25,637 nt of DNA from a virus (IMGVR_UViG_2671181122_000005:1-25637); one strand, 5' to 3'. Positions 3,524 to 12,646 are shown, counted from the stretch's first letter. Numbers and translations are program-made. The notes: a model not told the origin generated them from the sequence alone.

Positions 3524-3558
3524 TTGAAAATAAAAACAAAAACCCGCCGAAGCGGGTT
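3524..3558 (-). terminator. Intrinsic terminator at the 3' end of the hok transcript
   Basis: Stem cccgc/gcggg with a cgaa loop and a long A-run on the plus strand, giving a T-run after the stem on the minus strand, about 70 nt below the hok stop. Confidence 0.55.
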
Positions 3559-3626
3559 AAGTGCGGGTGCGTTGAGGATGCCTGCCACATCAGAGGTGGC
3601 GAGGGATTTCTCCCTCGCCGGGTCTC

Positions 3627-3782
3627 TTACTCCTCAGGTTCGTAAGCTGTGAAGACAGCGACCTCCGTCTGGCCGGTTCGGATTCGTACCTCGCAGAGGT
3701 CTTTCCTCGTTACCAGTGTCGTCACTATGACGGTTAAACAGATGACGATCAGGGCGATTAACATCGCCTTTTGCTGCTTCAT
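3627..3782 (-). CDS. hokD: Hok/Gef family type I toxin, HokD (RelF)-like, 51 aa
   Basis: The internal Met of the 70-aa ORF gives MKQQKAMLIALIVICLTVIVTTLVTRKDLCEVRIRTGQTEVAVFTAYEPEE, which differs from K-12 HokD at about one residue. Confidence 0.9.
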   Translation of the reverse strand: MKQQKAMLIALIVICLTVIVTTLVTRKDLCEVRIRTGQTEVAVFTAYEPEE

Positions 3783-4095
3783 AGCCTGCTTCTCCTTGCC
3801 TTCCGGCACGTAAGAGGCTAACCTACATGTGTCTAGCATGAAATTGGCCTCAGATTAATGTTAAGCGTCTTGCAGGACGCGTAATGTTAACTGGGGCTTT
3901 TCTCTATCTGCCTTTGGTGTTCATGCCTGAGACAGATAGCCTCAAGCACCCGCAGCCATTCTACTTAACTCCCGTTACCCCGCCAATATGAAATCAGTCA
4001 GAAAGGCGATCCATAAGAATAATGAATTCTGTAAGGCAATAGTCTCACTGTCTAACATATCTTACCTGATTACTTTACAATATAATAATTCATAG

Positions 4096-4740
4096 TTAAA
4101 TCAAATGAATGTCATCATCCAATAATTCATTAGTAGTAATACTACCTTTTTTGAAAAAATTTTCATTTGTCTCAGCAATTTTTGCATCATTAACAAATTC
4201 ATCACACATCCCAAAATAATGAAAAAATCTATTTAGTTTACATATTCCAATGGTATAGTGCCCTTTAGGTGTTTTGTCCACATAAACACGATTTGCTTTT
4301 ATAATATGCATCTCATAATCATCTATATGTGGATGAACGATGCGAAATGATGCAGATGCAGTTGGATAGTTTTTGCGCCGCCCCCCATTTATTACGGGTT
4401 CAAATAACACTTCATTTTTACCTTTGAATTCATTGCAGTCAGGACATACTACACATAGATTCTTAGGTTCAAAAATAAAACATAGATATTGAGATTTTGG
4501 CACAATATGCTCTATAGGAGCAGCTTGTGCAGCTCTTACCCCAATAGGCTCATGACAATATACACATTCTAGCTTTTGTTCTTCTCTGTAATGATTTCTA
4601 ATTTCTGCACGGAGAACTTGCAAATCATCATCTCCCCAGTTGGTATGCTTAAAATCTGGAGAAGACAATTTTTTCTCAATAATATCTAATGACTCTGCGC
4701 TGAATCTAATTGGATTTTTAATTTTTGGCATAAATTTCAC
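4096..4740 (-). CDS. HNH endonuclease (214 aa), PtuB-like partner of the upstream ATPase
   Basis: HNH/zinc-finger core: CVYCHEP (aa 59-65), EHIVPKS (aa 77-83), CVVCPDCN (aa 96-103). The start overlaps the ATPase gene by 23 nt. AT-rich codon usage. Confidence 0.75.
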   Translation of the reverse strand: MKFMPKIKNPIRFSAESLDIIEKKLSSPDFKHTNWGDDDLQVLRAEIRNHYREEQKLECVYCHEPIGVRAAQAAPIEHIVPKSQYLCFIFEPKNLCVVCPDCNEFKGKNEVLFEPVINGGRRKNYPTASASFRIVHPHIDDYEMHIIKANRVYVDKTPKGHYTIGICKLNRFFHYFGMCDEFVNDAKIAETNENFFKKGSITTNELLDDDIHLI

Positions 4741-6091
4741 ACACCTGAGATACGGAATTTACGAGTTCATTAATAGGGTCATTACTATTAACGTTTTCAA
4801 GGAGAAGTTGGAGTTGTTTTAATTCACGCCAATTATCATCTGTTACTAACTTAGCAGTCTTAACTTTTGAAAGTAAATTGAAAGCTAACCTGGCAATGTA
4901 TTCATTCATAATGCCAGGGGCATCAAATAGTTCCGCAAGTTGATAGTCTGCAGACCGGTTGCTAAAGTATTTTGCTTTATAAAGATAACTTTTCGACAAA
5001 GATGTTATATAACAACCTTTATTCGGCAAATTGGATATTATTTGTGGTGAATGAGTTGCAATTATGAATTGACAACCTGAGTAAGTTAAAAATGCTTTTG
5101 TTAACATAATGATAAACTCTTCCTGCCATCGAGGATGCAAGCTTATTTCCGGTTCATCAATTAATATTATAGAACCATCAGTTATATGCCCTGCAATTCC
5201 AAGCAACATCACTAATAAACATTGTTCTCCCGAGCTCGCACGTTTAAGTGACATGGGACCATAGCTTTTTTTTATGAGTCGCATATCCATCAATCTCATG
5301 AAGCCAGCGTTCATAAGTTTAAGAATTGATCTAGAAAAATAATTATTCGCATAAGTCGAGCCAACCAATGTTTCACCATTGGTAAAATCGACTGACAAGG
5401 TTACAGCCCTACGTTCAGGTTCAAATCGATTAATTTCAACCAGTGCTTCGTAAATATCATGACGTGATTCGGAGTTTAACTTTAAGAGACTCTCAATATT
5501 CTTCCTGTCAATTTTTATATTGTATTTTAAATATAACTCCTTAACTTCCGTTAATATCTCATCTGAATATACACCAATGAAGTTATAGTCAGGAGTGTCC
5601 GGTCCGTTGTAAGTTGGTTTAAATACAAACTCTATATGGGGCTCAAAATCAATAGAATGAAAAACATCGAGTAAATTTGCAGGATTTTCTGAATAAGCAA
5701 GTTTCTCTAGCCAACCTCTCGCTGCTGAAGATAAAAGGGATACGGCATTTGATACGCCGAAGGGGCCTTCTCCACGCATACCCACATAGCGATAATTATT
5801 TTCTTTCCTTTGGTGATTTAATGACCTACGCCCTGGAGGGAATTTATCGAATGGGCTGGTAGATACGGCAATTAACTTTGGTGTTATTTCTCTGTCAAAT
5901 AATGGATTAAAAGTTTTCAAGAAATGAACATCTTGAATACAGTCTTTAGCAATCTGAGATAACAATCTGCTTTTTCCAACGCCATTTTTACCTACAATTA
6001 CTGTAAAAATATTCGCATTATCAGAAACATCACCTTCTATAGCAAGTTTTAAGGTTCGACTATCATGATGGGTATAATATAGTCTTTTCAT
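4718..6091 (-). CDS. ABC/AAA_21-type ATPase (457 aa), PtuA-like
   Basis: Walker A GKNGVGKS (aa 34-41), signature-like SSGEQ (aa 286-290), Walker B IILIDEPE (aa 308-315), H-loop ATHS (aa 345-348), with a long insert between Walker A and the signature, as in SMC/RecF-like defence ATPases. Confidence 0.75.
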   Translation of the reverse strand: MKRLYYTHHDSRTLKLAIEGDVSDNANIFTVIVGKNGVGKSRLLSQIAKDCIQDVHFLKTFNPLFDREITPKLIAVSTSPFDKFPPGRRSLNHQRKENNYRYVGMRGEGPFGVSNAVSLLSSAARGWLEKLAYSENPANLLDVFHSIDFEPHIEFVFKPTYNGPDTPDYNFIGVYSDEILTEVKELYLKYNIKIDRKNIESLLKLNSESRHDIYEALVEINRFEPERRAVTLSVDFTNGETLVGSTYANNYFSRSILKLMNAGFMRLMDMRLIKKSYGPMSLKRASSGEQCLLVMLLGIAGHITDGSIILIDEPEISLHPRWQEEFIIMLTKAFLTYSGCQFIIATHSPQIISNLPNKGCYITSLSKSYLYKAKYFSNRSADYQLAELFDAPGIMNEYIARLAFNLLSKVKTAKLVTDDNWRELKQLQLLLENVNSNDPINELVNSVSQVCEIYAKN

Positions 6092-6503
6092 TTTATTTTT
6101 CTCTCATTAAAATGCTCTTAATTAAGAATACCTATGCCTTTAACAGGCTCATAGTTATGATTTGTGATGCTTTCAAAAGGGTATGTAACTAAGTATTGAA
6201 CTCTACACCTAAGATTCTAAGATTTTTAAATTAAAGTAGTTAAACATGCTTTTGATTGTACTCATTCTATGTCCATCGTTGCTGCATGTCTAGATATCGT
6301 GCCCCGCTATTGTTATGTAATGATATGATGGACGCCCTGTCTGAAGCAGCCAGTGAAATATTTTTACTGTCTGCGTTTTCTACAGGAGTAAATCACATGA
6401 GCACAATCAGAGTTGTTGGTATTGATATTGACCTGTGCCCAATTTTTTGAGACATATATTGGTACGCTCTTGGCACAGGGCTGCTGCTGCAGCCCTGACA
6501 GCT

Positions 6504-7072
6504 TTAGACTTCGATCGATTCAGAGATCTCTAATGCATCATCAACTTCTATACCCAGATAACGAACTGTGCTTTCCGTTTTCTTATGGCCCAACGGAAGT
6601 TGGATCACCCGGAGATTCTTAGTTTTCTTGCAGACAAGGCAAGGTTTTGTTCTTCTCATGGAATGTGTGCTGTAAAGCGAATCTTCGAGACCAAGCTTTT
6701 CTCCCCCCTATGAAAGATTCGGTTATATTGCAGGATTGATATGTGTTGGTTAGTACCGACCCGAGATCGGAACAAGTAGTCTTTACTGCGTAAATTGCCA
6801 AGCTTTATCAATGCAGAAACAGCTTCTCTTGTCCCTTTGGTTATCTCAAATTGGATAGGACTGCCAGTTTTTCAGTTGCAGCACCGTAGCTCTGCTTGAA
6901 ACCGAGCTAAATCACGCGTTTTACCTTCCAGTTCAAGCCGGATTTGGAGCCCCCAGATATGAGATATCTGAAGTGGTCTTTTTGGGCCTATGATACTGTC
7001 TTTGTTCCTCGGTGACGTATTCATACTCAAATCTCCTGCAATGTGGAAGATTTGAGTATGGTTGTCTCTCAA
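6504..7072 (-). pseudogene. Frameshifted small tyrosine recombinase (FimB/FimE-size) remnant
   Basis: Minus-strand frame ending at 6504 encodes ...LYSTHSMRRTKPCLVCKKTKNLRVIQLPLGHKKTESTVRYLGIEVDDALEISESIEV*, with the HxxR...LGH...Y catalytic C-terminal pattern. Upstream pieces sit in two other frames (ORFs 6619..6801 and 6872..7072), with one shift at a C6/G6 homopolymer (6703-6708). Confidence 0.45.
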
Positions 7073-7125
7073 GAGCGAAATAGGTCAACTATAACTAGTT
7101 GTTGTGCATGTACGAATTCTGCCAA

Positions 7126-7971
7126 TTAATTATTGACAATAAAAATTCTGGAATGTTCGAAATCATCATATCGAATTATAATCTGGTTGACTGCATCTAT
7201 TGTTGGCGCCATTTCAGTTATAATATCTCGATAACCTAAAGAGTTAAATACATTTACTAAGGCCTCACACCGCAGGCCAATAGCAATTACGACATTATAA
7301 ATTGCCAGCCGTTTATTTTCTTGTTTAACTGCAAGAGTGAGTTCGATAGCAGTAGTTTTATCGCTTTGGATTGCATTATATAGAGATACTATATTTGCCA
7401 TATCATCAGAGAATGTATGTATTGAATCACAAAGAGGGACGTAATAGGCATGATAGTGTGTTTCCCAGCCAATTACTTCGAAAAGCTTTTTGGTTCCAGG
7501 ATATTCAGGTGTATTTGGCCACAATCTATTAAACATATCAGTTAGCTCTTTTCCGATACGAATCCTTTCATCTGCTGCTGGATTAGTCATTTCTTTGGAT
7601 TTTAAACACTCCAGCCACCGTTTCCCATTACTATGAACTAATTTCTTACTACCCTTGAGTAATGCTTGTGCATTTTTTCCATCATCAATTGCTATATAAA
7701 ATTGATTGGCAGCCTGTTCCATTATAACTCTAGTTAATACTTCCGATGCTGAAAAGGCTCCGGTACTCAAAGAAAATATAGCCTGATTACTAAGTTCATT
7801 CAGTACATTAAAGTAATGTAAAACCATCAATTTTTGTTCCACCCCCTTTAGGTTATCTATTTTATTTTTATGCCTCTCAAATTTCGCATGGATATATTTA
7901 TTTATCGCGGCTATTTTTTTTACATCTTCGTCGAAATCAAACGGGCAACGTCCAAACGATTTTTTCCTCAT
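7126..7971 (-). CDS. Hypothetical protein (281 aa), unassigned; candidate accessory/defence gene
   Basis: Long AT-rich ORF in the accessory block. No family recognised. The C-terminus has an Rx5H-type motif (RYDDFEH) that could be HEPN-like. Confidence 0.6.
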   Translation of the reverse strand: MRKKSFGRCPFDFDEDVKKIAAINKYIHAKFERHKNKIDNLKGVEQKLMVLHYFNVLNELSNQAIFSLSTGAFSASEVLTRVIMEQAANQFYIAIDDGKNAQALLKGSKKLVHSNGKRWLECLKSKEMTNPAADERIRIGKELTDMFNRLWPNTPEYPGTKKLFEVIGWETHYHAYYVPLCDSIHTFSDDMANIVSLYNAIQSDKTTAIELTLAVKQENKRLAIYNVVIAIGLRCEALVNVFNSLGYRDIITEMAPTIDAVNQIIIRYDDFEHSRIFIVNN

Positions 7972-12587: not shown

Positions 12588-12646
12588 TTTTCTGGTGACG
12601 TTTGGCGGTATCAGTTTTACTCCGTGACTGCTCTGCCGCCGTTTTT
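12588..12646 (+). ncRNA. dicF: DicF small regulatory RNA (ftsZ-targeting sRNA)
   Basis: TTTCTGGTGACGTTTGGCGGTATCAGTTTTACTCCGTGACTGCTCTGCCGCC followed by a T-run matches the K-12 DicF sequence as I recall it. It lies between ydfC and dicB as expected. Confidence 0.85.

Follow-up and report, generated by a model that had tools for sequence, protein, structure and literature searches.

In Escherichia coli K-12 (strain C600), relB and relE lie directly upstream of the toxin gene hokD, in the order relB-relE-hokD-rem. In the viral DNA analysed here, a stretch of 25,637 nucleotides hereafter called the window, a hokD gene stands without relBE, which raises the question of whether this toxin gene is controlled by an antisense Sok RNA or is left unregulated. 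Our analysis indicates that the locus is very probably a type I toxin-antitoxin module (hok/mok/sok) that is structurally complete, belongs to the hokD/hokW subgroup, resides in a Qin-like lambdoid prophage and is expected to work like the system of plasmid R1. The module is of an already known kind, and its subgroup has been characterised experimentally as hokW-sokW.

The hokD gene and its truncated K-12 relative

The hokD locus is flanked by rem (3410-3159) and by an HNH gene (4740-4096), both in its minus-strand orientation, and the interval from 3524 to 4095 represents the entire intergenic space separating the two. Further upstream on the hok strand, the HNH gene is preceded by an ATPase gene (6091-4718). 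The hokD coding sequence (3782-3627, minus strand) encodes 51 amino acids plus a stop codon and is preceded by the Shine-Dalgarno (SD) sequence AAGGAG at 3797-3792. In the list of open reading frames (ORFs), these 51 codons (3782-3627) form the final part of a 70-codon ORF at 3839-3627 on the same strand. The 51-aa protein matches the Pfam family HOK_GEF (PF01848) with 84 bits at a cutoff of 22, and scores 51.6 bits against the NCBIfam Hok subfamily model, which is under the cutoff of 73. It differs from K-12 HokD by a single residue, Thr22 for Ala22, which results from one base. A terminator scan located the intrinsic terminator of the hok mRNA at 3527-3558 (minus strand), formed by a hairpin (3558-3541) and a T-run extending to ~3527. 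Both the near-identical HokD and the downstream terminator reported in a first-pass annotation of this DNA were thus recovered on the minus strand, and the window likewise bears out that relBE is absent and that the HNH gene is the upstream neighbour. The relBE-hokD operon arrangement of K-12, in which the relE stop codon lies ~70 bp upstream and hokD has no leader of its own, is not found here. An identical 621-bp stretch is present in E. coli FORC 064, where RefSeq annotates the gene as hokD and its neighbours as "AAA family ATPase", "HNH endonuclease" and rem.

The small plus-strand ORFs in the interval (3524-3652, 3649-3813, 3884-3991 and 3988-4095) overlap hok, Sok or the promoter region and were treated as the antisense shadow of the module. 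Within hokD, the UAC codon for Tyr47 (3641-3644, minus strand) sits in a UACG motif (CUUACGAA), which is kept here; TadA has been reported to edit hokD mRNA from A to I at this site, changing Tyr to Cys (preprint 10.1101/2025.08.07.668861). According to the same preprint, overexpressed K-12 HokD is toxic. We would expect the Thr22 allele to be toxic as well.

Alignment with the K-12 hokD region, which had been suggested as a check, shows homology from position 3796 onwards, starting at the hok SD and including the near-identical coding sequence, while everything upstream in K-12 is relE. K-12 hokD is therefore without the hok promoter, the tac and ucb elements, the start of mok and the entire Sok transcript (see below); it keeps an orphan fbi element and, of sok, solely the -35 hexamer. 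It is transcribed within relBEF from the relBE promoter (PMC3598666). Integration of relBE shortened an ancestral hokD ORF of ~70 codons, according to PMC6379469, which cites Ramisetty and Santhosh 2016. Judging from the alignment, K-12 is the truncated form of the module, as already published (PMC6379469). The earlier description of hokD as "retained without relBE" hence reverses the history: the full module is common, and K-12 carries the cut form with its junction at 3796/3797.

The frequencies of the two forms agree with this order of events. A complete leader (at least 80% coverage) is present in 4116 of 5426 complete E. coli genomes (76%), with a median of two and a maximum of nine copies per genome, and the K-12 relE-hokD junction occurs in 1166 of the 5426. 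Moreover, 74 deposited phage genomes, Stx-converting phages included, carry at least 80% of the 461-bp module used as query, and a survey found hok to be enriched in prophages (preprint 10.1101/2025.08.07.668861). The K-12-type junction was also seen outside E. coli, in Kluyvera sp. CHPC 1.2972 (locus L044); loci L013 and L054 have it too. Three near-identical hokD loci of the E. coli type (L008, L012 and L040) lie on small contigs labelled as a Veillonella parvula MAG, Xanthomonas pisi and Acinetobacter idrijaensis, respectively, and are probably assembly contamination.

Promoters, leader and a candidate Sok antisense gene

A consensus scan identified a candidate hok mRNA promoter at 3958-3986 on the minus strand, with a -35 hexamer TTGGCG (3986-3981), a 17-nt spacer and a -10 hexamer TAGAAT (3963-3958). 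The -10 ends six bases before G3951, which is the first base of the tac element and the predicted +1 of the transcript. This spacing between the -10 and the 5' end of tac is the same as in the R1 hok promoter, for which suppressor mutations have validated the -10 TATGAT (PMC9841398). Promoter and terminator together predict a full-length hok mRNA of ~419 nt (3533-3951, minus strand). The hok mRNA of R1 has a length of ~398 nt.

The tac element GGGUGCUUGAGG (3940-3951, minus strand) forms the mRNA 5' end and aligns with the start of the Rfam family RF01794 ('sok'). Over the hok leader (3777-3951, minus strand), all 157 model positions (1-157) are matched with 117.1 bits (gathering score 59, E = 2e-26), much more than chance would give. 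The model starts with GGGUGCUUGAGG, stops at the hok AUG and matches the hok-sense strand. RF01794, despite being named 'sok antitoxin', marks the hok leader and the Sok target and not the antisense RNA, so strand labels taken from the family would be wrong. On the plus strand, the same family reached only 12.8 bits (E = 4); this sub-threshold match was dismissed, as were weak isrK, rsmX and snoRNA family matches in the region. The hok 3' UTR (3537-3618, minus strand), with its two hairpins and U-run, gave an isrK match of 25.7 bits (gathering score 50), which probably reflects merely the common shape of a hairpin terminator.

To place the remaining elements, we used a scan of one genome per species that yielded 62 related loci, 23 of which were distinct and full-length and were aligned; they derive from Escherichia, Photorhabdus, Pantoea, Erwinia, Citrobacter, Kluyvera, Pseudocitrobacter, Rosenbergiella and Kalamiella and include one R1-type plasmid. 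All elements described here lie on the minus strand. The upstream complementary box or anti-SD (ucb; AAGCCCC, 3893-3899) can pair with either the mok SD region or tac. The mok SD GAGG (3848-3851) is nearly invariant among the 23 loci and corresponds to the GAGG at R1 positions 105-108, mutation of which abolishes toxicity (PMC9841398). The downstream complementary box (dcb; GCCUC, 3814-3818) is paired to the mok SD (GAGGC) when the 3'-shortened RNA is folded. Towards the 3' end, a hairpin conserved in the 23 loci (GGCGAGGGA-GAAA-UCCCUCGCC, 3598-3619) is predicted to form the protective 3' end of the processed, translatable mRNA, by analogy to R1, whose truncated mRNA loses its function when the last stem-loop is mutated (PMC9841398). 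The fold-back inhibitory element (fbi; CCUCAAcGCACCC, 3565-3577), which pairs with tac, lies beyond this hairpin.

The mok-equivalent frame (3627-3839, minus strand) comprises 70 codons in frame with hok, and its ATG (3839-3837) is placed 8 nt after GAGG. An ATG follows GAGG by 7-10 nt in all 23 loci, while the frame that it opens varies: 15 loci, among them the window locus, the hokC type and the plasmid copy of the R1 type, have it in frame with hok, six have long ORFs in the +1 frame, and in two it is a 19-codon ORF that stops close to the hok AUG. As the mok start is kept and its frame is variable, the alignment suggests that ribosome traffic upstream of hok is the conserved feature and not the mok peptide. 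Translation of hok would be coupled to that of mok through the GAGG-8 nt-ATG arrangement and the open 70-codon frame. One might instead regard the 70-codon ORF as the real toxin gene, with the 51-aa Hok as its C-terminal part and the N-terminal 19 residues being functional. The open frame in 15 of the 23 loci would fit this, as would the naming of the long form as MokW or MokC 'toxin' in phage and RefSeq annotations (phage records label such homologues 'MokW-like host killing protein', and RefSeq annotates mokC as toxin). Nevertheless, we judge it quite improbable: eight of the 23 upstream ORFs are out of frame or end near the hok AUG, the hok SD and AUG are invariant throughout, and amino-acid changes in R1 Mok are not expected to affect Hok (PMC9841398). 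Conservation of the 19 codons is explained by the dcb and the Sok promoter, which the mok DNA upstream of hok also carries. The first-pass annotation had taken the 70-aa extension as "probably leader, not protein"; it is the mok frame, and only the view that its extra residues are unlikely to matter as protein holds.

Opposite the mok 5' end, the plus strand reads CTCCTTGCCTTCCGGCACGTAAGAGGCTAACCTACATGTG-TCTAGCATG and includes a candidate Sok promoter at 3796-3824, composed of a -35 TTGCCT (3796-3801), a 17-nt spacer and a -10 TAACCT (3819-3824). The layout TTGnCn-17-TAnnnT is found in 21 of the 23 aligned loci, whereas in the two hokC-type loci one nucleotide is deleted from it. The R1-type Sok promoter reads TTGCGC-17-TATCCT. 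A generic sigma-70 scan, which requires at least 4/6 matches per hexamer, found no plus-strand Sok promoter. The Sok -10 matches the consensus at only 3/6 positions, so the scan missed the promoter and it was found by homology instead; this weak match probably also explains why its position had earlier escaped detection. The predicted Sok antisense RNA (3831-3902, plus strand) is ~70 nt long and would end in a U-run at 3899-3902, possibly reaching to 3905. Its free 5' tail, which complements the AUG and SD of mok, is followed by a hairpin (3846-3898) and then GGGGCUUUUCUCU. An RNA starting at ~3831 folds at -30.3 kcal/mol (z = -5.3) into a long GC-based hairpin with a U-tail. The terminator scan gave no Sok terminator, presumably because the stem is longer than the scan allows, and folding reveals the terminator. 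The architecture of promoter, hairpin and U-run is conserved across the 23 loci, barring the promoter deletion in the two hokC-type loci. A Sok-like antisense RNA had been anticipated on the plus strand within 3800-3950, and the candidate placed here at ~3831-3902 lies inside that range.

A literature search for 'sokD' returned nothing relevant. Independent experimental evidence on this promoter stems from hokW-sokW of Sakai prophage 5. The Sok -35 and -10 hexamers are identical to those of hokW-sokW in the Stx2 phage II sequence, which we identified via the primers given in the respective paper. In a promoter-less sokW construct (primers YO-421/422), TAACCTA was changed to GAGCCGG and antitoxin activity was lost, and sokW supplied in trans restores antitoxin activity (PMC8621323). 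The sokW Northern probe YO-592 covers the stretch homologous to Sok in the window.

A predicted and conserved structural switch in the hok mRNA

Folding of the 419-nt RNA gave a minimum free energy (MFE) of -169.7 kcal/mol (z = -7.5) with its 5' end paired to its 3' end. In this fold, nucleotides 1-12 (tac) pair with fbi (3577-3565), a duplex of -21.5 kcal/mol, and ucb pairs with the mok SD region (GCC with GGC). Upon removal of the last 53 nt, the MFE structure switches to tac/ucb pairing as in the Rfam consensus, and the mok SD (GAGGC) pairs with dcb (GCCUC, 3818-3814). On their own, the first 38 nt fold into a local hairpin in which tac is sequestered. As modelled, these folds correspond to the metastable, closed and open states described for the R1 hok mRNA (PMC9841398).

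The tac/fbi duplex forms in all 23 loci at a similar distance from the 5' end; long-range pairing of the tac/fbi type, proposed earlier as a test by leader folding, is hence both present in the MFE structure and conserved. MAFFT left a one-base bulge in fbi unplaced, and the pair count from the alignment covers only the first six tac/fbi pairs, which are paired in 100% of the alignment cells compared to at most 58% with slid partners; pairs beyond these were counted from RNAduplex output. The covariation score of tac/fbi was reached by none of 500 shuffles, with tac being nearly invariant and the covariation resting on few lineages. Two-sided changes occur at position 4 (U-A to C-G in seven loci), at positions 9 and 11 (G-C to A-U) and at position 12 (G-C to A-U in five loci). 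The open-state helices are 94.7% paired across the 23 loci, and the closed-state helices together with the 3' hairpin (3619-3598) are 84% paired, against at most 57% for the slid controls in both cases; as the structures were derived from the same sequence, these controls are somewhat flattering. The mok SD/dcb helix is paired in 94.8% of cells. For the 3' hairpin (3598-3619) alone the value is 94.7%, with two-sided changes at four pairs. The two competing pairings of ucb, with the mok SD and with tac, are both conserved.

Based on these elements and folds, the module would operate as follows. A weak constitutive promoter (3986-3958) would produce a stable mRNA of ~419 nt, whose tac 5' end would be kept in a local hairpin while transcription proceeds. 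In the finished transcript, tac would pair with fbi ~375 nt downstream and ucb would cover the mok ribosome-binding site, so that the full-length RNA would escape both translation and binding by Sok. The 3' end would slowly be trimmed as far as the hairpin at 3619-3598, with loss of fbi; tac could then pair with ucb, the mok SD would move to dcb, and ribosomes could load at the mok AUG (3839). Translation of mok would bring ribosomes to hok and, as mok is in frame here, a 70-aa extended Hok may be made too. The short-lived Sok (~3831-3902, plus strand), perfectly complementary to the mok start and SD, would pair with the trimmed mRNA, block mok translation and mark the duplex for RNase III. 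Hok would be made only once Sok synthesis stops, and would then insert in the inner membrane and depolarise or lyse the cell. The 3' processing, the RNase III cleavage of the duplex and killing upon Sok decay are known from R1 (PMC9841398) and in part from hokW-sokW (PMC8621323). Regarding the biological role, we favour the one that has been shown for hokW-sokW of Sp5, in which Sok would be lost and Hok made on prophage induction, aiding lysis and phage release; stabilisation of the prophage or exclusion of other phages are alternatives.

Some complete chromosomal hok loci have been reported as inactive, and a complete locus alone is thus no proof of activity. The module could be structurally intact and yet physiologically silent, a passenger or relic from which too little Hok is released. 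In line with this, chromosomal hokA, hokB and hokC gave no post-segregational killing or rifampicin activation according to the literature summarised in a preprint (10.1101/2025.08.07.668861), genes of the prophage close by show decay (in the identical FORC 064 locus, the integrase is frameshifted and a DUF1627 gene is truncated), and hok leaders elsewhere have been struck by insertion sequences, e.g. IS481 in O103:H2. We nonetheless consider silence rather unlikely. No inactivating lesion is visible in any element of the locus, 76% of complete E. coli genomes and the 74 phage genomes have kept the module, with compensatory changes that maintain its RNA structure, and the ~92% identical hokW-sokW is active (PMC8621323). 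The idea of a decayed copy like that at locus L015, which is without the tac element, was rejected, as no lesion was found here.

The upstream gene slot, annotation and related systems

PADLOC models identify the ATPase/HNH pair as a Septu defence system, with PtuA at 6091-4718 (E = 1e-165) and PtuB, the HNH protein, at 4740-4096 (E = 1e-83), both on the minus strand. Next to it lie a DUF5677 ORF (7971-7126, minus strand) and a frameshifted remnant of a tyrosine integrase (~7024-6504, minus strand; as annotated in the identical FORC 064 locus). Septu, the DUF5677 ORF and the integrase remnant (4096-7971, minus strand) take up the slot in which K-12 Qin has relBE. The conserved module spans ~460 bp, from the -35 hexamer (3986) down to ~3527, and homology among hokD-type loci begins at ~4023. 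The gene directly upstream differs between strains: none extra is present in BL21, QueH in ST131, relBE in K-12, and in O103:H2 an alpha/beta hydrolase, together with an IS481-family element inside the leader. From the fixed start of homology and the varying upstream gene, the module appears as a self-contained unit beside a variable cargo slot. In the O103:H2 strain PV16-126 (locus L068, 3666-4739), the IS481-family transposase lies between the hok leader and the hokD coding sequence. Similarly, insertion sequences have inactivated the K-12 genes hokA, hokC and hokE. The Septu (PtuAB) neighbour is the only uncommon feature of the locus, the PtuB-hok junction occurring in 19 of the 5426 complete E. 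coli genomes.

This neighbourhood allows for the idea that hok is expressed mainly by read-through from ptuA-ptuB and serves as a membrane effector or back-up of the Septu defence. Indeed, ptuB has the same orientation and its stop codon lies 110 bp before the hok -35, a terminator scan between the two found no terminator-like site, and K-12 hokD belongs to the relBEF transcript (PMC3598666). We consider this idea extremely improbable, however, since the module comes with a promoter of its own and with full Sok control, the boundary of its homology at ~4023 does not depend on the upstream gene, the junction is rare, and hok was not enriched beside defence systems in a genome-wide survey (preprint 10.1101/2025.08.07.668861). 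A read-through transcript would, in addition, still hold fbi, ucb and the Sok target. As to whether hok is read from its own leader or from the ATPase/HNH operon, which the first-pass annotation had left as alternatives, the own promoter (TTGGCG-17-TAGAAT) speaks for the former; read-through may happen and is not needed. Equally far-fetched, in our estimate, is a functional pairing of hok/sok with Septu, with Hok either as a second abortive-infection arm or as an addiction element that fixes the defence-cargo slot. If the former were true, ptuAB read-through or loss of Sok during infection would free Hok to act at the membrane; if the latter, lambdoid prophages would hold a swappable slot (relBE in K-12, QueH in ST131, the hydrolase in O103 and Septu here) secured by the module.

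Further regulatory RNAs were found elsewhere in the window. Rfam matches over the gathering score lie just downstream of a Q-antiterminator-like ORF (1003-1398), namely C4 antisense RNA (775-859), isrK (885-962) and c4-a1b1 targets (923-975), all on the minus strand; this cluster (775-975) looks like a regulatory RNA cluster of the P1/P7 or IsrK/anti-Q type. A full-length match to the DicF sRNA (12590-12641, plus strand; 72.5 bits) fits a Qin-like prophage.

As such, the hok/sok module belongs to textbook knowledge, and the value of the analysis lies mainly in annotation. RefSeq marks just the 51-aa hokD coding sequence at such loci. The leader matches in E. coli genomes fall under no annotated feature, which leaves Sok RNA, mok frame and promoters unannotated. 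Placing a candidate Sok at ~3831-3902 (plus strand) and treating K-12 as the truncated exception averts a misreading of the gene as an unregulated hok, and of the locus as one that lost relBE. Furthermore, the variable upstream slot, occupied by Septu here, may interest those who map defence hotspots in lambdoid prophages.

Among known systems, the closest is hokW-sokW of Sakai prophage 5 and Stx2-converting phages, an experimentally shown type I toxin-antitoxin system (Takada et al. 2021, PMC8621323) in which mitomycin C induction makes sokW RNA disappear and HokW appear (PMC8621323). The modules are ~92% identical over promoter, leader, mok/hok and fbi, and share the Sok -35/-10, a 70-codon in-frame mok and a lambdoid prophage as host. 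They differ in the C-terminus of the toxin (TAYEPEE of the HokD type here, VDYESEK in HokW), in a few bases of the Sok 5' tail and hairpin loop, and in the sequence past fbi. Moreover, the Stx2 phage II module is located elsewhere in the phage genome, whereas the one described here lies between the replication genes and rem/Q.

K-12 Qin hokD (relF) has a near-identical coding sequence, the same 3' UTR, fbi and terminator, and the same downstream neighbours, rem and ydfU. The E. coli hokC/mokC/sokC system (gef) also has an in-frame mok (69 codons) and the same layout of tac, fbi and Sok, with the 70-aa products of the hokC type and the window being 68-71% identical. It occupies a different chromosomal position outside a prophage; its Sok-target hairpin is shorter, and its Sok -10 region is shifted by 1 nt.

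Finally, hok/mok/sok of R1 (parB) contains the same set of elements, including an antisense Sok (a candidate one in the window) with a weak promoter inside mok, in the common order promoter, tac, ucb, mok SD/AUG, dcb, hok, 3' hairpin, fbi and terminator, and the refolding predicted here upon 3' shortening matches that of R1. R1 Hok is only distantly similar, HokW being 44% identical to it, and the host is a plasmid rather than a prophage. The Sok-target hairpin in the window exceeds that of the Rfam consensus by 16 nt. The true R1 mok lies in the +1 frame relative to hok, as follows from the positions of its mok AUG at 116 and hok AUG at 174 (PMC9841398), whereas the two are in frame here.
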